Origin: an uncultured Ectothiorhodospiraceae bacterium
Lineage (GTDB): Bacteria; Pseudomonadota; Gammaproteobacteria; CAMYNG01
Reading direction: 5' to 3'
NCBI GenBank assembly: GCA_947259765.1
Contig: CAMYNG010000001.1
Span: 158,219-222,218, forward strand
DNA: 64,000 nt
Part shown: positions 40,814 through 52,779 of the stretch, one piece after another
Numbering within the stretch: position 1 is the stretch's first letter
Layout: each line of letters begins with the position of its first letter
Position numbers and translations under genes: made by a program
The notes under the pieces: generated by a model
Seen by the model: the letters and a program-made list of their open reading frames with translations, nothing else
What the model was told of the DNA's origin: nothing
The model's database searches: none

Positions 40814-41599
40814 TCACAGCAGTCCCGCCTGTGCCATTTTTCCGTTTAACTGTGATGCCTTCTCAGGATCAAGCCCTTGAATCACCATCAGTAGATAATT
40901 AAGCTGTGCCGTCTGTTTTTGCTCCAAAAGGCGGATCGCCGCTTCAAAAAAGGCGCCGCCAGCTTCTCGCCACTTGCCTTGTGTGTAGTAAACATTACCC
41001 AGTTCACCGAACGCGTCCGCGCTTTCGGGTTCCTGACGTGTGAGAGCCAGATAATGTCGCTCTGCCGATGAGAGATCACCCACGCCGTATGCCGTACGCG
41101 CCTTTTTCAACAACTGGTAGGCTTCGCTTTGTACGCGGTCACTGCTCGCTGTTTCAACACCTTGAGCGGTGTGGTCGGCCTGTGTAACGTCAGGATATTC
41201 GGCTTGAACCAGTGGCGTTTGCGCAACGTCTTGCTGAATCGGGCTTGGCTCTTGTAAAGATGGTGGTGTCGGCTCCGATGCAAGCTCCGACGCTGGAGCC
41301 TGCGTTACTGTGGATTCAACAATCTCACTTTGCAAAACCCTGTCGTCTTCGGGAATCACGGCTACAGATTCGCCCTGCTTTACGGGCTTTGATGCCGCGA
41401 TTGGCGAGGTCGTCGTCTCATCGCTTGAACTTTCAAAACTAAACTTGAGTAACTGTGGAAGCACATGCTCAATGCGTTCGTTTAGCTTGGCATTCCAGAC
41501 CTCGGGCAGCAAAAGTGTCCTATAGTAAAACCCGGCCAACAGTGCCACGAGCACTATAATAAGCACGCTATGACTCAAGATGTGTCTAATGATCTTCAT
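40814..41599 (-). CDS. Membrane-anchored TPR-repeat protein
   Basis: The protein has an N-terminal TM segment (VLIIVLVALLAGFYY), an acidic Ser/Pro/Glu linker and C-terminal TPR-like repeats (AERHYLALTRQEPESADAFGELGNVYYTQGKWREA). Confidence 0.65.
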   Translation of the reverse strand: MKIIRHILSHSVLIIVLVALLAGFYYRTLLLPEVWNAKLNERIEHVLPQLLKFSFESSSDETTTSPIAASKPVKQGESVAVIPEDDRVLQSEIVESTVTQAPASELASEPTPPSLQEPSPIQQDVAQTPLVQAEYPDVTQADHTAQGVETASSDRVQSEAYQLLKKARTAYGVGDLSSAERHYLALTRQEPESADAFGELGNVYYTQGKWREAGGAFFEAAIRLLEQKQTAQLNYLLMVIQGLDPEKASQLNGKMAQAGLL

Positions 41600-41662
41600 C
41601 CGTCAGCACCCCTGTTTGCAAAATAATCGTCGCCTGAAATCTTGTCGTCGCATGTCATCAGC

Positions 41663-42445
41663 TCATCTATTGAACTGCGAATTTTCTCTTGAGCCCGGAG
41701 GATTCGATGCACGCGTAAAATCATCGGGCACCACAAACAAGGTTGGTGATTGTTTACCGACCTTAATATTTCGGAGTTCGCGCACAAACCCGCCTTCAAA
41801 TTCCTCGCGAATCGCTATGCGAAGTTCCGGGTCGTACCATTGCACTGACTGGAGTTGCTTGCCTCCGGGTTGGGTTGCACGCATCTCCCATCTTTCGACG
41901 TCACGACCGTCTATTTTGCCTTTACCCGCCATGCTCATTTCAGCCACTGTTCCGTCCGGAAATAATTCACGTATGGGAAATTTTCGTTCCACTTCAATCC
42001 AATGCAGGCTGCGCAGATTTTGGCTGTCGACCGTGCGAACCATTTCCCATTTTTCCGCTTTTAGGCCCGCAATGATTTCAACATCCAACTTTCGACAACG
42101 GGAATTAACTCGATCTGCGCATGGACTGAAATTTTTTCTAGCCTCGCCGGTTGGTATTGTCTGCTGTGAAATTTTCTGCTCGACAAATTGCTTTACGTCC
42201 GGCCAATATAAAATGCGTTTTTGTTGTTGCGGATAAAAAATTTCCACAACAGTTCGACCGTTGATCACTGACTCAGTGCGCACGGCGTGTTTACTCACGT
42301 TCATCTGCGCATTCATTACCAGTCCTCCAGGTGAAATTTGCAGTGCATCTGCGGAAAACTCAGCAGCCACTCCTGTCGCGTTAACAACAGGAGCGCAAGC
42401 CAATAACACGCACGTAAATAAACTCGATTTCAATTTGGAGAACAT
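41663..42445 (-). CDS. Exported/lipo-protein of unknown function
   Basis: The 260-aa protein has a signal sequence (MFSKLKSSLFTCVLLACAPVVNA) and a beta-rich body. The track ORF runs on to 42964 only because an alternative frame of the neighbouring Gly-Tyr repeat gene is open. I trimmed it to the ATG at 42445. Confidence 0.6.
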   Translation of the reverse strand: MFSKLKSSLFTCVLLACAPVVNATGVAAEFSADALQISPGGLVMNAQMNVSKHAVRTESVINGRTVVEIFYPQQQKRILYWPDVKQFVEQKISQQTIPTGEARKNFSPCADRVNSRCRKLDVEIIAGLKAEKWEMVRTVDSQNLRSLHWIEVERKFPIRELFPDGTVAEMSMAGKGKIDGRDVERWEMRATQPGGKQLQSVQWYDPELRIAIREEFEGGFVRELRNIKVGKQSPTLFVVPDDFTRASNPPGSRENSQFNR

Positions 42446-42530: not shown

Positions 42531-43055
42531 TTATTTGTTGGCGCCAGCCGGAGGTTGCGCCGGCGGTTGCGCGGGCGGCGCCCAACCCTGACCGCCCCAG
42601 CCTGGACCATAACCTGGGCCATAACCCGGACCATAGCCACCGCCACCGTAACCAGGTCCATAACCGCCACCGCCGTAGCCGTAACCGCCATAGCCTGGGC
42701 CACGGCCGCCGTAGCCTGGGCCGTAGCCACCGTAGCCTGGACCATAGCCACCGTAGCCTGGACCATAGCCACCGTAACCTGGACCATAGCCACCGTAACC
42801 TGGACCATAGCCACCGTAACCTGGACCATAGCCGCCGTAGCCTGGGTGGCCGTAACCCCGTCCGTAGCCACTACCCCGACCGTAGCCGGAACCGGAGCCA
42901 CGCATACTGAAGTCCATGTCGCCCCAGCCGTCGCCCCAACCATTGCCGTAACCGTTATTGCCAAACGGTCCCCACCAGGCCTGGGCCGAAGTTAACGGCA
43001 TGGCGGTTGCGCCGACCAGCGCCGCGGCTGCCATTAGATGTTTTACACGTTTCAT
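42531..43055 (-). CDS. Secreted Gly/Tyr/Pro/Trp-rich repeat protein (sulfur-globule-protein-like composition)
   Basis: The signal peptide ends ...PLTSAQA/WW. The mature part is almost only G, Y, P, W and R, with six PGYGGYG heptads plus variants, and it ends in an (AQPP)n tail. Confidence 0.7.
   Translation of the reverse strand: MKRVKHLMAAAALVGATAMPLTSAQAWWGPFGNNGYGNGWGDGWGDMDFSMRGSGSGYGRGSGYGRGYGHPGYGGYGPGYGGYGPGYGGYGPGYGGYGPGYGGYGPGYGGYGPGYGGRGPGYGGYGYGGGGYGPGYGGGGYGPGYGPGYGPGWGGQGWAPPAQPPAQPPAGANK
42699..42845 (-). repeat. Tandem 21-nt coding repeat (PGYGGYG x6 plus PGYGGRG)
   Basis: The plus-strand unit ccaccgta(a/g)cctggaccatag is repeated head-to-tail. It is in frame within the 42531-43055 CDS. 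Confidence 0.85.
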
Positions 43056-43290
43056 GATAATTGCTCCTGAAATGATGTTAACAACGTTCCACTGCGGCAG
43101 ATGTAATACCTACCGCGCCACTCTCTCTTGGTTAAAACCTACAGTGTGCAAATGTAGAGAGTCCCATCTGCCCACCACCGGCAAAGTTCTAACGGGATAA
43201 CACGAACAACACCCGCAAAGCTTTACCCTCCCTTTAAGACGACACGCGTTAACTTGCAGCAAAATTTTTCTGTCAACTCGCGCCATCTTG

Positions 43291-43980
43291 TTACCAGGCT
43301 CCAAATGGCCAGTTCATCCCCGTCAGCCCCGACGGATAACCACCATAAGGTGCCCCATAAATCGGATAGCCTGGATACATACCCAATCCGGGTGTCACTC
43401 CCGGATAGCCCCATGCCGGCCCCGGCAACCCACCCCCGGCATACGGATTGCCCCATCCACCCAGCCCATATCCACCCGCTCCATACACATTGCCAGCGTA
43501 GGGATAGGCGGGATAGGAATAGGGATGTAAATAGCCTCCCGCCGCATAGCCGGGAGGAGTTGATGGAGAATAAGAAGCCGTGCCACGTTGTTCATAACAC
43601 GGCCGATAGTGCCGGTCATATGAGCGATAAGATCGCCGCGTCGAACGCGGCAGTTCACCCCACGGGCGCGACTCGCTCGGAATTTCAAACAGATGATCAC
43701 GCACAGGTGCGCTTCGTTCACGCTCGTATCGTGGTGGAATCTGACCGAACGAATCAACGTAATACGAACCGTCGACACGTGACGCACTTCGGCGTCGGCC
43801 GGCGGGAGTTGGTTCAGTTTCCACAACCGAAGACCAACGAGACGGCCAACGATCCGGTGAATAGGTCACGCCGTTCTGTTGGCCAAAGCTTTCCGCGTTA
43901 GCAGACAGCGCAGGACACAGCAGGCTCAGGAGAATCAGACCACGTGCCGGGGGTGCGTATACTGTTGAAAGTTTCATCAT
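43291..43980 (-). CDS. Secreted protein with Arg/Ser/Tyr-rich middle and Gly/Tyr/Pro-rich C-terminus
   Basis: The signal peptide reads MMKLSTVYAPPARGLILLSLLCPALSANA/E. The C-terminus reads YPYAGNVYGAGGYGLGGWGNPYAGGGLPGPAWGYPG...YPIYGAPYGGYPSG. I chose the start ATG at 43980, preceded by GGTGAGG. Confidence 0.6.
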   Translation of the reverse strand: MMKLSTVYAPPARGLILLSLLCPALSANAESFGQQNGVTYSPDRWPSRWSSVVETEPTPAGRRRSASRVDGSYYVDSFGQIPPRYERERSAPVRDHLFEIPSESRPWGELPRSTRRSYRSYDRHYRPCYEQRGTASYSPSTPPGYAAGGYLHPYSYPAYPYAGNVYGAGGYGLGGWGNPYAGGGLPGPAWGYPGVTPGLGMYPGYPIYGAPYGGYPSGLTGMNWPFGAW

Positions 43981-44031
43981 GACCTCACCCTTAAAACCTT
44001 TGTGCATGATTCGCGTGACAAAATCTCGATC

Positions 44032-45498
44032 CTATCGCTGGGGCACGTTCGCCGGAGGACGACCTGTGTTCCAACCAGGAGGTGGTGCCCACTGTCCGTA
44101 GGGATATCCATAACCATACTGTGGCGGATATGGCCGCTGGGCCGGCGCAGGACCTGTCCCGGTTTGGTCAGGCATCTGCGGTTGCATCGGTGCGTTGAAT
44201 CGCGGTGGTCCCGACTTTTGCGTCCAATTGGGCTGCACGGGAGGTGCAGATCGATGCGCGGGAGCTTGTGACCACTCCGGCTGCGCCGGTGGTTGATATT
44301 GAGGTGGCGGTCGCTGTGCCCAATCCGGTCTTACCGGAGGCGCGGTTCGTTGGCCCGGTGCTTGTGATCTATCCGGGCGCGCCGGTGGTTGATATTGAGG
44401 CGGCGGTCGCTGTGCCCAGTCCGGTCTTACCGGAGGAGCAGTTCGCTGGCCCGGTGCTTGTGACCACTCAGGACGCGCCGGCGGTTGATATTGAGGCGGC
44501 GGTCGCTGTGCCCAGTCCGGTCTTCCCGGAGGCGCGGTTCGTTGGCCCGGTGCTTGCGACCACTCAGAACGCGCCGGTGGTTGGTACTGAGGCATCGGCC
44601 GCTGCGTCCACTCCGGTCGTGTCGGCGGTGCGTTTTGTTGCACGGGAGTTTGTGATCCGTCTGGCCGAGTCGATGGTTGAGTGTGTGGCGTCGGCCGCTG
44701 TGCCCACTCCGGTCGTGCGGGAGGTGCAGCTCGTTGTGTCGCTGCTTGCGATCCGTCGGAACGTTTTGGCGGTTGAGTATTTGGCAGTGGCCTTTGCGCC
44801 CAGTCCGGTCGAGTTGGCGGCGCGCCTCGATGCATGGGTGCTTGTGTATCGCCGGAACGAGCCGGTGGTCGATAATGCGGCCGCGGTTGTTGCGCCGGTT
44901 GCTGCCATTCGGGACGTGTGGGTACCTGATAACGCGGCATCGGTCGCTGTGCCCAGTCAGATCGTGGCGGCGGCGTGGTTCGTTGTGTCGGTGCTTGTGA
45001 TCCGCCGGGATGCGTCGGAGGTTGACTGTACGGCATCGGCGGTACCGGCCTCTGCGCCCAGTCCGGTCGAGCGGCAGGCGCGGTTCGCTGTGCTGGAACC
45101 CGTGATCTGTCGGAGCGAGCTGGCGGCTGAGTGTGCGGCATCGGCTGTGATGTCCATCCGGGTCGAACAGCTGGTTCGGCAGTTTGTGCCCTTGGCGTAC
45201 CGGTTTGAGCGGGCGCCCGCTGTGGCCAAACTGGAGCTTGTTGTGCGGAACGTTGCTGTTGTGACCAAGCAGGCATATTGGAGTAACGACCCGTCTGCGG
45301 CACGGCTCGCGGTTGACTCGGATAACCATCTTTCGACTGTGACCGATAAGGTCCGGTGGGCGGAGGCGGCATAACTTCGGAAGCGCCGTCTTGCGCAGTT
45401 TCCGCCGCAAAAGCAGTAAACGTAAAAGTGCAGGACATCAGCAGCAAGTACGCCGTAGCCAATTTGAAGTTCGAACTCTTTCTGCGCGATACTTTCAT
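44032..45498 (-). CDS. Secreted Pro/Gln/Arg/Trp-rich protein built from ~10 tandem 32-aa repeats
   Basis: The signal peptide reads MKVSRRKSSNFKLATAYLLLMSCTFTFTAFA/AE. The repeat unit is RPDWAQRPPPQYQPPARPEWSQAPGQRTAPPV. The C-terminus is Tyr/Gly-rich (PQYGYGYPYGQW). Confidence 0.65.
   Translation of the reverse strand: MKVSRRKSSNFKLATAYLLLMSCTFTFTAFAAETAQDGASEVMPPPPTGPYRSQSKDGYPSQPRAVPQTGRYSNMPAWSQQQRSAQQAPVWPQRAPAQTGTPRAQTAEPAVRPGWTSQPMPHTQPPARSDRSRVPAQRTAPAARPDWAQRPVPPMPYSQPPTHPGGSQAPTQRTTPPPRSDWAQRPMPRYQVPTRPEWQQPAQQPRPHYRPPARSGDTQAPMHRGAPPTRPDWAQRPLPNTQPPKRSDGSQAATQRAAPPARPEWAQRPTPHTQPSTRPDGSQTPVQQNAPPTRPEWTQRPMPQYQPPARSEWSQAPGQRTAPPGRPDWAQRPPPQYQPPARPEWSQAPGQRTAPPVRPDWAQRPPPQYQPPARPDRSQAPGQRTAPPVRPDWAQRPPPQYQPPAQPEWSQAPAHRSAPPVQPNWTQKSGPPRFNAPMQPQMPDQTGTGPAPAQRPYPPQYGYGYPYGQWAPPPGWNTGRPPANVPQR
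44197..45165 (-). repeat. Tandem 96-nt coding repeat array (about 10 units, the three at 44236-44523 nearly identical)
   Basis: RP(D/E)W(A/T)QRP recurs at protein residues 155, 190, 241, 273, 305, 337, 369 and 401, with a 32-residue period over the last seven. Each unit is itself two 16-aa half-units. Confidence 0.8.
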
Positions 45499-45555
45499 TT
45501 GCTTTGTCCTCATCATTAATTCCGTCACCAATTTTTCAGCTCGACAATCACATCA

Positions 45556-48500
45556 TCAACCTGGTTCATCCTTTGGAGAAGTGACACGTCGCTTAGCACG
45601 ACTCGGTACTCGCTTTCCTTTCACAGTTTTTTTCACCGTTGCTTTCTTCGCTGTCTTTTTTATATTAGTTGTTTTGCTGGTCGTACTGCCGGCAGGTTTT
45701 TTTGCTTTCCGCGTAGTCTTCCGGGTGCGGGAGGAAGAAGTCGCGGCTGCAGATTTTTTACCTACCGATTTTTTCTTTGCAGTCGATCGGGACCGAGCTT
45801 GTGTTTTGGCAGTTGATGGTTTTGAAGCTGTCTCAGCAACAGGCTTGACCGCGGCGGGCGCGGAAGATGGCGCCGAGGGTGACCCTCCGCCGCCGGGCGT
45901 ACCACCGTCTGGCGTTCCATCAGGAGTTGAGCCAGAGTCATTCCCGGATCGGCGAAAACGCTGCAGGAGGCTTGCGATCGCCATGCGCAACATCATGTAA
46001 ATCGCACGCAGGATATAAAACGCCCACGTCACCACACCGACGACTTTACCCCACAACACCAATGCCAATGGCATCTTGTTCGCCGCCGTAATCGGCTCAT
46101 CCGCAGCGGTTGCAATCGCTGCGTCACCCGGAACATCGGAAAAATAGAATTGCTTGCGCGCGCTAATGCAACCCAAGGGAATAACTACAAGCGTTAGGAT
46201 TGTCGCAACACCCGTACCAAATAGCAGACTTACCGCCATCCCCTGAAAAATAGGATCGGTAATGATCGCTGCAGCACCGGCCATCAGTGTGAGCGCAGTT
46301 ATAAAGATAGGTCGCATGCGAATTTGTCCAGCAGCAATCACGGCCTCGACAATATCGTTGTTTTGCTCCGCCTCCTTTTTGACGAATTCCACCAGCAGAA
46401 TCGAGTTGCGCACAATGATGCCCGCCAGCGCGATAAACCCAATCATTGACGTTGCAGTGAACTCCGCGCCGACCAGCCAGTGACCGGGAATTATGCCAAT
46501 TAGGGTAAGCGGAATCGGCGCCATAATCAGGCCGCCCAGCGTAAAGTTCTTGAACTCCCAAACAATGAGTCCGTAAATCAGAACCAACGCTGCCATAAAC
46601 GCGAGACCCATATCACGAAACGTTTCATAGGTAACCGTCCATTCGCCCGTCCATTCAATACCGGAACGAATATCGCTTTTCGGCGGACCAATTAAGCCAA
46701 GTGGCATCCCGCTAATGGTTACACCGTCCGGCGTGGTATATTTTGCAAGCAGGTCTTCGACATTGAACATGCCGTAAATTGGCGCACCGAGTTCGCCTTC
46801 CATTTCGCCCGTGACATACTCAATTGGGCGCAGGTCCTTATGAAATATCACCGAATCTTCCGGGCGGGGCACAAACCGGCCTAACTCGGCCAGCGGGATG
46901 GTGCCACCACTTTTCGACATAATGGGTAGATTCTTAAGGCGTTGGATCTGGGCGCGGACGGGTAACGGAACCTGAATAACGATATAGGTAGGCTCGCGTA
47001 CCACCCGCCGTTTAATGTCACCAAGCTTAAAGCCGCCCATGGACATCGCAAGATTTTGATTTATCGTATCTACCGAAACGCCATAACGAACTGCCTTTTC
47101 GATGTCTACCTCAAACTGCCAAAATTCAAACTGAGCAGAGAGATAATTATCAACATCGACAACGCCGTCCGCTTCTTCAAACATGGCAGTCATATCACGG
47201 GCGACTTGACGACGCGTATCGGCATCCGGCCCATAAACCTCCGCAACAACGGTTTGTAAAACCGGTGGACCAGGGGGCATCTCTACTACCTGTATGCGTA
47301 CGCCTGTGGCCTTTACGTCTGGACGCGCATCAATGAACTCGTTAAGTAAGTGGCGTGCCGCGACGGCAATCTCATGACTGCCTCGCTCACGCTCGTTTTT
47401 GTCCAGCAACATGACCTGAATATCAGATTGCCAGGGTTGAGATCGAAGATAGTAATGGCGAACCATTCCGTTAAAGTTAAAGGGTGACGACGTACCCACG
47501 TAGGATTGTAATGCCGTAACCTCCGGGATCCCCCGCAATTTCTCGGCAAGTGAATGCGTCACGTTTGCAGTGACGGGAAGCGCCGTTCCTTCCGGCATGT
47601 TTATTACAACATTGAATTCCGGTTTGTTATCAAAAGGCAACATTTTGACCGTGACGATGTTGAAATAAAACATCGCACAGGCCAGGAACGTCGCGCCAAT
47701 AAGACCAAACATGAAAGTCAAACCTAGTACACGATTATTGCATAGCGGATTCATGCAAGGACGATAGACTCGACCGATCCATGCCCTGATTCTCTCCTCG
47801 CGAACCTCTGCTTTTTTCAACGCCTCTAGTTGCGGTCGAACCCGCATCGCGAACCATGGTGCAAACACAAAAGCGGCAATAAGTGAGAAAAACATCGCCG
47901 CCGAGCCCAGCACCGGTATGGGACGCATATAAGGCCCCATCAGGCCGCTGACGAACCCCATAGGCAGCAAGGCTGCAATGATCGTTAGCGTAGCGAGTAT
48001 GGTTGGATTACCTACTTCACGAACCGCATCGATAGCGATCGCCAGTGTCGTTTTTCCAGCTGCCAACCAGCGTCTGAAAATGTTTTCCACGACGACGGTT
48101 GCATCGTCAACGAGTATTCCTATTGAGAAAACAAGCGCAAAGAGACTGACCCGATCGATGGTGTAGTCAATTATCCAGGCCGACCAAATAGTGACCAGGA
48201 TTACGATTGGAATAATTGTAATTACGACGGAAGCGGCACGTAGCCCCAGGCCGATAAGGCAAAGAATACTTACGGCAATCGCTGCTTCAAACAGTGCAGT
48301 CAGGAGCTCATTGACTTTATCATTCGCTGTCTTGCCGTAATCACGCGTAATTGCGATCTCTACATTCCCGGGAATTAGGTTTCCCTTTAAGGACTCAAGT
48401 TTTTCAATTACAGCATTAGCGACGGTAACTCCGTTAGTTCCAATTTTTTTTGCGATGGCGACTGTAACCGCCGGGGCGCCGTTAACGTCCTGTGCATCCG

Positions 48501-49407
48501 CTGCTTGTGCCGAGCCACTGTAGAATCCCGCTACCTGGCCGGTTTCTTCCGGCGCCTGAAATACCTGCGCGACATCTCGCACATACACCGGTGCGCCGTT
48601 ATAGACACCCACTACAAGACGCGAGATTTCCTGTGCACTACGTAGAAACGCCCCTGTGTATACCGTAAACGCCTTGTCACTTCCCTCTACAAATCCCGCC
48701 GATTGTTCCGCGTTGGCCGTTTGAATAGTTTGTGCAACCTGCGCCACGCTAAGACCAAACCCACTCAGGCGTTCAGGATAGACCTCGACGCGTATTTGTT
48801 CGGCCCGGCCACCTACAACAAAACCGTTACCCGTATTCGGCACCTGTTCCAGGCGCTGCAAAACATCAAACGCGAGTGTGCGAAGATTTCCATCATCAAC
48901 ATCCTTTGACCAGAGTGTCACAGTGACAATGGGGACATCATCTATTCCCACCGGCTTGACCAATGGCATGGAGACACCGGGTGGAATCATGTCAAGATTG
49001 GACTGCAACTTGTCATGTACCTTGACAATGGATTCGCCCAGGTTTTCGCCGACCAGGAAGCGGACGGTAACGATGTTTGCTCCCCGCTTCGTAGCCGAGT
49101 AGACATGCCGCACACCCGGAATCTCGCTCATGATCCTTTCAAGTGGATCCGTAACCAGGCTGGTTACCTGCTCTGCTGACGCCCCTGGGTATTGCACGTA
49201 GATATCCACCATGGGAACAGAGATTTTGGGATCTTCCTGCCGCGGCGTAAAAAACAGCCCCAGTAAACCGATGGCCAGGAATGCCATCATCAGTAGAGGA
49301 GTTACCGGTGAATTTATAAACTGACGTGCCGTACTACCGGCGATACCCAGCTCTGGATTTAGTTCCGGCTCTGGTTGTTTATCAGTTTGTTGTACTTTTT
49401 CCGTCAC
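45556..49407 (-). CDS. RND (AcrB/AcrD/AcrF-type) efflux permease with ~190-aa C-terminal extension ending in a Lys/Ala/Ser/Thr-rich basic tail
   Basis: The 1283-aa ORF has a 12-TM RND layout with two large periplasmic loops. After the last canonical TM segment it adds an extra hydrophobic segment (MPLALVLWGKVVGVVTWAFYIL) and then a 130-aa low-complexity tail. Confidence 0.9.
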   Translation of the reverse strand: MTEKVQQTDKQPEPELNPELGIAGSTARQFINSPVTPLLMMAFLAIGLLGLFFTPRQEDPKISVPMVDIYVQYPGASAEQVTSLVTDPLERIMSEIPGVRHVYSATKRGANIVTVRFLVGENLGESIVKVHDKLQSNLDMIPPGVSMPLVKPVGIDDVPIVTVTLWSKDVDDGNLRTLAFDVLQRLEQVPNTGNGFVVGGRAEQIRVEVYPERLSGFGLSVAQVAQTIQTANAEQSAGFVEGSDKAFTVYTGAFLRSAQEISRLVVGVYNGAPVYVRDVAQVFQAPEETGQVAGFYSGSAQAADAQDVNGAPAVTVAIAKKIGTNGVTVANAVIEKLESLKGNLIPGNVEIAITRDYGKTANDKVNELLTALFEAAIAVSILCLIGLGLRAASVVITIIPIVILVTIWSAWIIDYTIDRVSLFALVFSIGILVDDATVVVENIFRRWLAAGKTTLAIAIDAVREVGNPTILATLTIIAALLPMGFVSGLMGPYMRPIPVLGSAAMFFSLIAAFVFAPWFAMRVRPQLEALKKAEVREERIRAWIGRVYRPCMNPLCNNRVLGLTFMFGLIGATFLACAMFYFNIVTVKMLPFDNKPEFNVVINMPEGTALPVTANVTHSLAEKLRGIPEVTALQSYVGTSSPFNFNGMVRHYYLRSQPWQSDIQVMLLDKNERERGSHEIAVAARHLLNEFIDARPDVKATGVRIQVVEMPPGPPVLQTVVAEVYGPDADTRRQVARDMTAMFEEADGVVDVDNYLSAQFEFWQFEVDIEKAVRYGVSVDTINQNLAMSMGGFKLGDIKRRVVREPTYIVIQVPLPVRAQIQRLKNLPIMSKSGGTIPLAELGRFVPRPEDSVIFHKDLRPIEYVTGEMEGELGAPIYGMFNVEDLLAKYTTPDGVTISGMPLGLIGPPKSDIRSGIEWTGEWTVTYETFRDMGLAFMAALVLIYGLIVWEFKNFTLGGLIMAPIPLTLIGIIPGHWLVGAEFTATSMIGFIALAGIIVRNSILLVEFVKKEAEQNNDIVEAVIAAGQIRMRPIFITALTLMAGAAAIITDPIFQGMAVSLLFGTGVATILTLVVIPLGCISARKQFYFSDVPGDAAIATAADEPITAANKMPLALVLWGKVVGVVTWAFYILRAIYMMLRMAIASLLQRFRRSGNDSGSTPDGTPDGGTPGGGGSPSAPSSAPAAVKPVAETASKPSTAKTQARSRSTAKKKSVGKKSAAATSSSRTRKTTRKAKKPAGSTTSKTTNIKKTAKKATVKKTVKGKRVPSRAKRRVTSPKDEPG

Positions 49408-51233: not shown

Positions 51234-51355
51234 TTTTTTAACCACTTGTTTTACAAAGAAATATTTCTATTGCCAAGTGTGATGTTGCATCTGGGAAATA
51301 TCATCTCCTGCCATCAACCCACTGATTTAATTAGAGATAAACACAAATTTAAGAG

Positions 51356-51390
51356 TGCAACGTGTTGCGCAACCTGAGCGGAACTGCAAC
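51356..51390. promoter_or_regulatory. Candidate upstream activator sites (TGCAAC half-sites and GTTGCGCAAC palindrome)
   Basis: TGCAAC occurs at 51356-51361 and 51385-51390, and the perfect 10-bp palindrome GTTGCGCAAC at 51364-51373. These lie about 125-155 bp upstream of the -24 element. Confidence 0.35.
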
Positions 51391-51432
51391 ACTTGTATAA
51401 ATTGCATGAACGAAGTACGGGAAGGTGGAGTA

Positions 51433-52779
51433 ATGGTTAGAATTTCAAGTCTGTTCCCGATGCTGGAGGCGGTGGTTTCCAATATCGCCGAGGGTGTGCT
51501 CATTGTTGATAAAAAGGGCAACGTTCAATACCAGAACCCCTCCGCCGCAGAGCTTCTTGGATTACGTCCCGGTCAGCCGCTATCCAAGTTGCACGATGTC
51601 AGCCAATTCAATTTACAACGCGCGATACTGAAGGCGGCCATCGACGCCGGTGAGGTTGATGCCGCGGGTCAGCCCAGTGGTGCGTTTGTTCAGTTTGAAC
51701 AAAAAATTCATCGAGAAAACGGTGATCTGTATCTGGAATTTTACACTGGGTTTGTCAATTGTCAGGAAACCCACAGCCAGGCCCGTCTCATTCTGATTCG
51801 GGACCGAACCCAGCAACGACGACTGGAGGCGGTTTATCAAAACAAGTACCCGGATCTTGAGAGTAGCGATCCCCACATGTTGGAAGTGGTCGACCGGATA
51901 CGACAAATTGCACCCACCAACGCGTTCGTACTTTTGCAGGGGGAATCCGGTACGGGTAAAACATTATTGGGAAGAATGATTCACCGCTTGAGTTCAAGAG
52001 GCAGCCACGCGTTCGTTGAGCTTAACTGCGCGGCAATTCCGGAAACCCTAATCGAGTCTGAATTATTTGGCCACGTTAAAGGTGCTTTTACCGGCGCCAC
52101 ACAAGATCGTCTAGGACGATTTCAGGCGGCCCATCAGGGCACTTTGTTCCTCGACGAAATTAGTGAGATCCCTTTACACCTGCAAGCCAAACTTTTGCGC
52201 GCAATTCAAGAGCAGGAGTTTGAGATGGTGGGTTCGAATAAAACTGAAAAAGTTGATGTACGCATCATCGCGGCTTCAAATCGCAACTTGCGCGATTTGG
52301 TCGACGCCGGTGAGTTCAGGGCTGATCTCTTTTACAGGTTGGCTGTTATTCCCATAACAATTCCGGCTTTGCGGGAACGCCCCGGTGATATCCCATTGCT
52401 CACAAATTACTTCATTGCTCGGCTCGCCGCACGCGGTTATCCCGACGATATCGAATGTACCCACGAGGCGATGCGAATGATGATGAATTACCCGTGGCCC
52501 GGAAACGTACGTGAGCTTGAAAATGCCATTGAGCACGGAATTATTTGTGCTGAACAGAACCGAATTTTGCCGGACTCTCTGCCGCAGGATATTTTCGCCT
52601 TTAGTCATAAAAGTGAGACGCCTACGCTGGATGTGAATTTTGATGTGCATCAGGAACGTGAGCACGAGATCTTACTGGCACTGCAACGCGCCAATGGCAG
52701 CAAGGCGATGGCAGCGCGTATTCTGGGGATAGATCGTTCTACGTTGTGGCGACGTATGCAGCGGCTTGGAATCCAATGA
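51433..52779 (+). CDS. Sigma-54-dependent transcriptional activator (PAS - AAA+ - Fis-type HTH)
   Basis: The ORF has a PAS-like N-terminus, Walker [17 protein letters not shown] (KGAFTGATQ), ESELFGH and a C-terminal HTH ([24 protein letters not shown]). I chose the start ATG at 51433, preceded by GGTGGAG. Confidence 0.88.

Follow-up and report, generated by a model that had tools for sequence, protein, structure and literature searches.

Purified sulfur globules of Allochromatium vinosum contain SgpD (Alvin_2515, UniProt D3RP35) as their most abundant protein (PMC10386293). SgpD is exported by the Sec pathway, co-localises with the globules and is dispensable for globule formation; it has been called 'somewhat repetitive', its prolines are regularly spaced, and its gene adjoins those for a hydrophobic/amphiphilic (RND-type) exporter and a transcriptional regulator (PMC10386293). 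The sulfur-globule literature compares Sgp proteins with keratins and with the cell-wall proteins of plants (PMC10386293). How periplasmic sulfur globules are built, coated and supplied is nevertheless poorly understood beyond one purple sulfur bacterium, in which few coat proteins are known and those are restricted to certain lineages. Here we describe a repeat protein of 488 amino acids (aa) encoded at positions 44032 to 45498, minus strand, in a 64,000-nt stretch of contig CAMYNG010000001.1 from an uncultured Ectothiorhodospiraceae bacterium (hereafter the window; all positions refer to it in full), and we consider whether this protein has a role like that of SgpD.

The repeat protein resembles SgpD in being exported, non-enzymatic and repetitive, in its regular prolines, in its place beside an RND-type exporter and in a presumed association with Gly/Tyr globule proteins. 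SgpD differs in having two confidently predicted helices and a mature form that starts with Trp, and neither a PPxGPY motif nor a P-x-W-x-Q repeat has been reported for it, the two proteins being compared by description only. A role like that of SgpD would thus be a functional analogy, and homology is not claimed. The other proteins of the globules, SgpA, SgpB and SgpC (PF17228), are likewise exported, of low complexity and built of repeats, and the Tyr/Gly tail of the repeat protein resembles them, but they are ∼90–130 aa long, Gly/Tyr-rich and hydrophobic, whereas the mature repeat protein has 457 aa, is rich in Pro, Gln and Arg with 5% Gly, and is very polar. Plant extensins and other proline-rich cell-wall proteins, as well as FUS-type Arg/Tyr condensate scaffolds, also combine short Pro/aromatic repeats with weak multivalent aromatic or cation–pi contacts; these are analogies only, with no sequence relationship, and any phase behaviour of the repeat protein would be posited by that analogy. 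Hydroxylation and glycosylation of the extensin type are not expected in bacteria.

We are confident that the gene is real and that its product is exported, disordered and a member of a family defined in part by its position, which we refer to by its PPxGPY motif. Searches with the repeat protein itself did not lead to this family: a word-seeded search of 5.8 billion proteins returned nothing, a six-frame search of 40 related genomes found no relative, and an exhaustive phmmer search of 1.84 billion representatives gave five matches, all to unrelated eukaryote-like repeat proteins on periodicity alone. Relatives were located by synteny, with the DUF4412 gene at 41663..42445 as the anchor. A profile made from 18 family members found four matches only, all of them true members; low-complexity words had saturated the candidate list. 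In the alignment of 18 positional relatives, the only invariant columns were four residues of the motif (P, G, P and Y) and one C-terminal Pro. A relaxed form of the motif was matched by 38 open reading frames (ORFs) in 38 loci, every one of them between an RND pump gene and the DUF4412 gene; the other 5,353 ORFs on both strands yielded 3 weak matches, attributed to chance (these counts include contigs fetched twice, and ∼30 of the 38 loci are distinct). Within its own genome the repeat gene alone matched the strict form of the motif (1 of 17,207 ORFs), and no other ORF carried at least three of the strict P-[DEAQ]-W-[AVT]-Q copies, of which the repeat protein has 10. The parts of the gene are as follows, with residues numbered in the 488-aa frame (adding 11 gives the 499-aa numbering used in the initial annotation).

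44032..45498, minus strand: coding sequence of the repeat protein, 488 aa (ORF list, codon-position test, protein properties)
45507..45511, minus strand: ribosome-binding site GAGGA, 8 nt before the ATG at 45498 (read from the sequence)
45406..45498, minus strand: Sec-type signal peptide MKVSRRKSSNFKLATAYLLLMSCTFTFTAFA, likely cut after AFA (basic n-region, hydrophobic core and A-x-A, read by eye)
45340..45372, minus strand: family hallmark MPPPPTGPYRS, residues 43–53, 12 residues into the mature protein (18-sequence alignment)
45166..45279, minus strand: proto-repeat region with isolated P-A-W-S-Q and P-V-W-P-Q motifs (translation)
44236..45165, minus strand: repeat array of nine 32-aa units, two early ones being 35 and 51 aa (repeat finders, translation)
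44236..44619, minus strand: the four youngest units, residues 294–421, 73–91% identical in DNA (identity matrix, synonymous/non-synonymous counts)
44140..44235, minus strand: degenerate tenth unit QPNWTQKSGPPRF..., 30–38% identical in DNA to the other units
44035..44139, minus strand: aromatic Tyr/Gly/Pro/Trp tail QRPYPPQYGYGYPYGQWAPPPGWNTGRPPANVPQR (translation)

The signature of the family is a signal peptide followed within ∼10–25 residues by PPxGPY(R/K/Q)S, then a Pro/Gln body and an aromatic tail. The body carries P-[DEAQ]-W-[AVT]-Q motifs, as a rule with R-P next to them on the C-terminal side, in lineage-specific tandem repeats. With the slot after the pump, the motif, the Pro/Gln body and the tail all in place, the repeat protein is the longest, repeat-expanded member of an unnamed and previously undescribed family whose members range from 92 to 488 aa and in isoelectric point (pI) from 4.4 to 12.0. 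BLASTP joined it to the relative from genome G239 at 1e-26 without low-complexity filtering, and composition-adjusted BLASTP joined it to those at L066 (1e-16) and P0084 (1e-8). The family is conserved yet unannotated and escapes ordinary homology searches; its signature offers a simple rule for finding such genes in genomes, namely PPxGPY behind a signal peptide in the gene that directly follows the pump. In many colourless sulfur oxidisers the family has a fixed place next to a pump, a LolA-like carrier and a Gly/Tyr coat-like protein, and the signature points to a concrete candidate, open to test, for a coat or matrix component that is still missing. The signature and the pattern of selection described below are new in this analysis; the motif, the fixed family after the pump and the sulfur-oxidiser context had no place in the initial annotation.

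The mature protein has 457 aa and a mass of 50.8 kDa, with a pI of 11.4, a net charge of ∼+29 and a grand average of hydropathy (GRAVY) of −1.5; it consists of 25% Pro, 14% Gln, 12% Ala, 11% Arg, 5% Gly, 4% Trp and 3% Tyr, and is free of Cys. The only Cys sits in the signal peptide, where a lipoprotein reading of the L-M-S-C stretch was rejected on the ground that this Cys is not conserved, the signal peptides of the relatives having none. An AlphaFold2 model made with no alignment had a mean predicted local distance difference test (pLDDT) score of 46.6, and its sole secondary structure was the helix of the signal peptide, residues 9–34. Pfam, with E values up to 10 and the sulfur-globule protein (SGP) profile included, gave no family for the protein, nor did NCBIfam, and a sequence search of the PDB gave no match; no C-terminal domain of any kind, TonB_C and TolA included, was detected by Pfam, NCBIfam or the AlphaFold2 model. 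The protein is most aptly seen as a chain that is exported, disordered or extended, and has no folded domain. Its tail (PQYGYGYPYGQW; QRPYPPQYGYGYPYGQW...) resembles the Tyr/Gly-rich C-termini encoded by the next two genes, a likeness that the initial annotation had pointed out and that is present in all three proteins. Relatives carry similar tails, such as YGYGYPPVPAYIAPWGYGPG in P0084.

Tandem Repeats Finder reported 4.9 copies with a period of 96 at 44264-44736 (score 540), and a separate repeat finder found six copies at an exact spacing of 96 nt. In the translation, units start at residues 112, 144, 179, 230, 262, 294, 326, 358 and 390, with a degenerate unit from 422, and insertions lengthen two of the early units to 35 and 51 aa. 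A unit comprises an RP[DE]W-AQRP half and then an RP[DE]W-SQAP half, each of 16 aa and opening with RP[DE]W or a decayed form of it (RSDG, RPDR, HPGG), and Trp residues recur along the array every 16 or 32 residues. These results bear out the initial annotation in its account of a signal peptide followed by about ten 32-aa (96-nt) repeats, each made of two half-units starting RP(D/E)W, apart from the decay of some halves. Its gradient of identity, with drifted N-terminal copies, also holds, since C-terminal units are 73–91% identical to each other in DNA, as compared to 58–70% for N-terminal units. It overstated, however, the likeness of the three copies at 44236-44523, which it took to be almost identical in DNA; these are 82–91% identical in DNA and 81–94% in protein, their differences are mostly synonymous, and they are not very recent. 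Ongoing expansion, which it took such a gradient to indicate, is not supported for this gene, since the youngest copies already differ at 9–18% of bases. Over the whole array, units differ by 9–42% in DNA. Metagenome contigs, scanned with a protein pattern and with an exact repeat pattern of 25 nt, contained no near-identical copy.

The open frame extends over 44032..45531 on the minus strand, the ATG at 45498 being the likely start, and the genome holds a single copy of the gene. Three long ORFs overlap here, the other two being at 44205-45374 on the plus strand and 44427-45410 on the minus strand. Among the six regular units, differences fall at codon positions 1, 2 and 3 of the 44032-45498 frame in the ratio 101:58:216, and among the four young units in the ratio 18:12:70; a third-position excess is also found in the repeats of two relatives (162 vs 32 and 26; 26 vs 3 and 9). 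This third-position bias indicates that the 44032-45498 frame, which the initial annotation had chosen and on whose translation it had staked its finding, is translated and under purifying selection. By coordinate arithmetic, the variable sites fall at codon position 2 in both rival ORFs. Changes at that position always alter the residue, and the rival ORFs are for this reason shadows of the translated frame. The G+C content at third codon positions is 0.50 in this frame and 0.44–0.55 in neighbouring genes. Selection therefore preserves the peptide unit even as the underlying DNA drifts, and the family is in this respect a clean example of fast repeat turnover at the DNA level with a peptide unit kept by selection.

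Turnover is also apparent from the repeat units of the relatives, which share cores of the form RPDWAQRP, PAWAQRPP or PQWTQRPP:

G239: 15-aa unit QPPARPDWAKAPQRM
G023: 32-aa unit of two halves, as in the repeat protein
L066 and L064: 12-aa unit APQRPDWAQRPA
L065: 23-aa unit QAPAWVRNPPPPPAWAQRPPMQR
L057, L061 and P0083: 24-aa unit MPAPQWTQRPPQPRMPAPNLNRNR

The first two of these belong to one genus and differ in unit length, 15 aa in G239 and 32 aa in G023, both units being arranged around a PPARPDW core. Similarly, the protein of L061 has three copies of its unit (253 aa) and that of P0085 one (160 aa), with mostly common N-terminal residues as judged by eye. These contrasts indicate that both copy number and unit length change quickly in the family. 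The two congeneric proteins are nearly equal in total length (257 aa for G239, at L037 1747-2517; 259 aa for G023, at L038 1896-2672).

We favour the reading that this Sec-exported, disordered, basic Pro/Gln/Arg/Trp protein of the PPxGPY family is a structural partner of Gly/Tyr globule-coat proteins, and we assign it a probability of about 0.5. Globule association, docking and co-assembly are inferred here from the gene neighbourhood and one analogy drawn from the literature. After export, the N-terminal PPxGPY motif would dock onto a partner encoded in the same block of genes, be it the pump, its adaptor or the LolA-like protein. The extended body would then offer one Trp and one Arg per 16 residues, and these, together with the Tyr/Gly tail, could make multivalent aromatic and cation–pi contacts with the Gly/Tyr-rich neighbours. 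In this way the repeat protein and the Gly/Tyr proteins would help to build a coat or matrix around periplasmic globules of elemental sulfur, with the number of repeats setting valency and reach. The three genes occur side by side in many genomes, which makes co-assembly with the Gly/Tyr-rich neighbours plausible. A bolder version, which we offer tentatively and hold to be rather doubtful, posits a new class of scaffold in which disordered, multivalent Arg/Trp 'sticker' chains would co-condense with Gly/Tyr proteins on elemental sulfur that the RND pump and the LolA-like carrier supply; the motif would serve as the docking peptide by which assembly of the coat is tied to the export site, and rapid change in the number of repeats would adjust coat thickness or globule size from one lineage to the next. 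A general electrostatic, polysulfide-binding mechanism was considered and is ruled out by the pI range of the family, 4.4 to 12.0.

The neighbourhood consists of a block of genes in the order SCP2-like, adaptor, RND pump, low-complexity genes, Gly/Tyr SGP-like, DUF4412, TPR, DUF948 and dynamin. The genes closest to the repeat gene are these:

45556..49407, minus strand: RND (AcrB-family) pump with a basic tail of ∼200 aa (PF00873, E=5e-146), its stop codon 57 nt before the repeat gene
43291..44007, minus strand: second low-complexity exported protein, with YSPDRWPSRWSS near its N-terminus, starting 24 nt after the repeat gene
42531..43055, minus strand: Gly/Tyr-rich exported protein, AQA|WWGP... 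with PGYGGYG heptads (composition, translation)
41663..42445, minus strand: DUF4412 protein (precomputed PF14371 matches on homologues)

The repeat gene looks co-transcribed with the RND pump. The gene at 42531..43055, two genes downstream of the repeat gene, is the only sulfur-globule-protein-like Gly/Tyr gene of the assembly. Across many families the same core succession is found (SCP2-like, adaptor, RND pump, a variable interval and DUF4412), and many loci continue with ParA, TPR, DUF948-like, dynamin, DUF302 and sulfur-transport protein genes. The pumps of these blocks are 56–72% identical to that of the window, and the interval from pump to DUF4412 gene measures 0.2–3.1 kb, that of the window being the longest.

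The block occurs largely in the company of sulfur oxidation. The genome itself encodes SoxB (867 bits, above the curated cut-off). In a sample of the class, of which about a tenth has the DUF4412 gene, SoxB turned up in 22 of the 24 genomes whose DUF4412 match was strong and in 87 of the 275 others, counts that describe a pattern and do not amount to a statistical test, as related genomes are not independent. The named carriers of the block are sulfur oxidisers, among them Sedimenticola, Candidatus Vondammii, Thiogranum, Thioalkalispiraceae, Thiohalorhabdus, Sulfuriflexus, Ectothiorhodospiraceae and Thiotrichaceae. Among phototrophic Gammaproteobacteria in the sample, 2 of 7 carry it, one with a 92-aa PPPPPGPY protein in the slot and the other with no gene there, and the remaining 5 are without a close orthologue of the pump. 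The block is missing from five other genomes of the window's own family (G001-G005, loci L002-L016), whose best RND pump, 43–46% identical, is followed by LysR, AI-2E-type permease and PhoH-like genes. Its distribution is thus patchy, and gain or loss of the block may lie behind this.

Several observations weigh against a role in sulfur globules. The link between globules and this or any other PPxGPY member is drawn from gene neighbourhood, and some genomes with the block, such as those of Sedimenticola, are without a PPxGPY gene in the slot. BLAST relatives of SgpD, the protein that provides the analogy, are almost confined to Chromatiaceae (PMC10386293). The very hydrophilic mature protein (GRAVY −1.5) is unlike the 'extremely hydrophobic' SgpA, SgpB and SgpC, and its charge is not conserved in the family, as is evident from the spread of pI. 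A search of the genome, 72.6% complete, for DsrA gave no match. Finally, PF17228 was not reported for the Gly/Tyr product of 42531..43055 in the Pfam runs; this profile, when run over the genomes, gave zero matches anywhere, control genomes included, and is uninformative on this point.

The most serious rival holds that the protein is an accessory of an RND/LolA-like route, a sponge, chaperone or tether that would dock on the pump through PPxGPY and handle hydrophobic cargo, whether sulfur or another. We consider it somewhat improbable. The slot is tied to the pump more tightly than the Gly/Tyr gene is, since at L052 and L056 the slot gene is the sole gene between pump and DUF4412, and a conserved N-terminal motif with a body free to vary is what such an accessory would have. 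Moreover, the DUF4412 protein has a predicted LolA-like fold: its AlphaFold2 model (pLDDT 86) is an all-beta half-barrel whose best Foldseek matches are LolA, LolB and RseB (E=1e-7, at a template modelling score of only ∼0.4), which suggests, at the level of the model, a periplasmic carrier for hydrophobic cargo. However, a disordered, highly polar chain offers no pocket for cargo, and in 18 of the 56 loci with pump and DUF4412 genes the gap between them is less than 1.5 kb, with no motif gene in 16 of these 18, so the pump does not need the slot gene.

A basic, aromatic, repeat-rich and secreted protein with fast repeat turnover, as in many surface proteins, might instead belong to an outer-surface or extracellular matrix or act as an adhesive in biofilms or mineral attachment, its link to globules being accidental. 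This is unlikely in view of the fixed place of the gene inside the pump/SGP-like/LolA-like block across many families, and its vicinity is without a secretion system, a sorting signal or an anchor.

The initial annotation had read the protein as a length-tunable periplasmic spacer or matrix protein, with the TonB and TolA linkers as its comparison, and a rigid rod of the TonB/TolA kind, setting or bridging the distance between inner and outer membranes for the pump, has some appeal. Like the TonB and TolA linkers, the repeat protein is Pro-rich, periodic, probably extended and periplasmic; its 25% Pro, with Gln, Ala and Arg, all favour polyproline-II, its gene lies 57 nt after that of the pump, and no outer-membrane factor gene was found in the block by ORF list or Pfam. 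TonB and TolA, however, keep an uncleaved anchor in the membrane and end in a folded C-terminal domain, and their repeats are Glu-Pro/Lys-Pro or Ala/Lys-rich helices, which is not so here. The signal peptide is cleavable, leaving no membrane anchor, and neither TonB_C, TolA nor another terminal domain was detected. Family members of 92 to 488 aa with quite different bodies are unfit for a fixed spacing, and the repeat region, if fully extended, would measure ∼100 nm, several widths of the periplasm. The spacer is accordingly very unlikely. What survives of the proposal is an exported, non-globular protein of tunable length, as shown by the pLDDT of 46.6 and by the variation in repeat number and unit among relatives; the part that had it spanning the periplasm does not. 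That the locus is non-functional, whether a minisatellite that drifts, an artefact of assembly or a gene read in another frame, as three overlapping ORFs in a metagenome-assembled genome might suggest, is close to refuted by the third-position bias in three lineages, the conserved signal peptide and N-terminal motif, a frame open over 1.47 kb, and units that differ by 9–42% in DNA and can therefore be spanned by short reads.

The neighbouring genes show further features of their own. The product of 43291..44007, for which no Pfam match was found, has a Tyr/Gly-rich C-terminus with a terminal W, and its positional relatives have W-P-x-R-W and a C-terminal W in common. These form a second conserved positional family, marked by a signal peptide, by (Y)SP(D/E)xWPxRW close to the N-terminus, by RPWGELP in mid-protein and by a Tyr/Gly/Pro-rich C-terminus ending in Trp (GAW, GVW, GFW, GYPW) in many genomes. 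Just upstream of the Gly/Tyr gene, inside a 235-nt gap, a sigma-70-like TTAACA-16-TATCAT (10 of 12 consensus positions) is found at 43054-43081 on the minus strand; judged by its match to the consensus, this gene may have its own promoter. The σ54-type PAS-AAA+-Fis activator gene at 51355-52779 is divergent from the block.

The RND pump of the window is 1283 aa long and its Pfam match ends at residue 1078; the extra C-terminal stretch, encoded at 45556-46160 on the minus strand, comprises a Gly/Ser/Pro segment of ∼200 residues and then a basic tail rich in Lys, Ala and Thr. Orthologues of the pump in the block are likewise long, at 1139–1397 aa. At Sedimenticola-type loci (L103, L106 and L114), a single small exported protein of another kind, with GYRFRP-type motifs, is encoded in an interval of 0.6–0.9 kb. 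A ParA/MinD-type ATPase gene (CbiA, AAA_31) lies between the DUF4412 and TPR genes in L119 (7819-8825) and L121 (7805-8443), whereas in the window (40814-42445) ParA is absent at this place and the TPR gene directly follows the DUF4412 gene.

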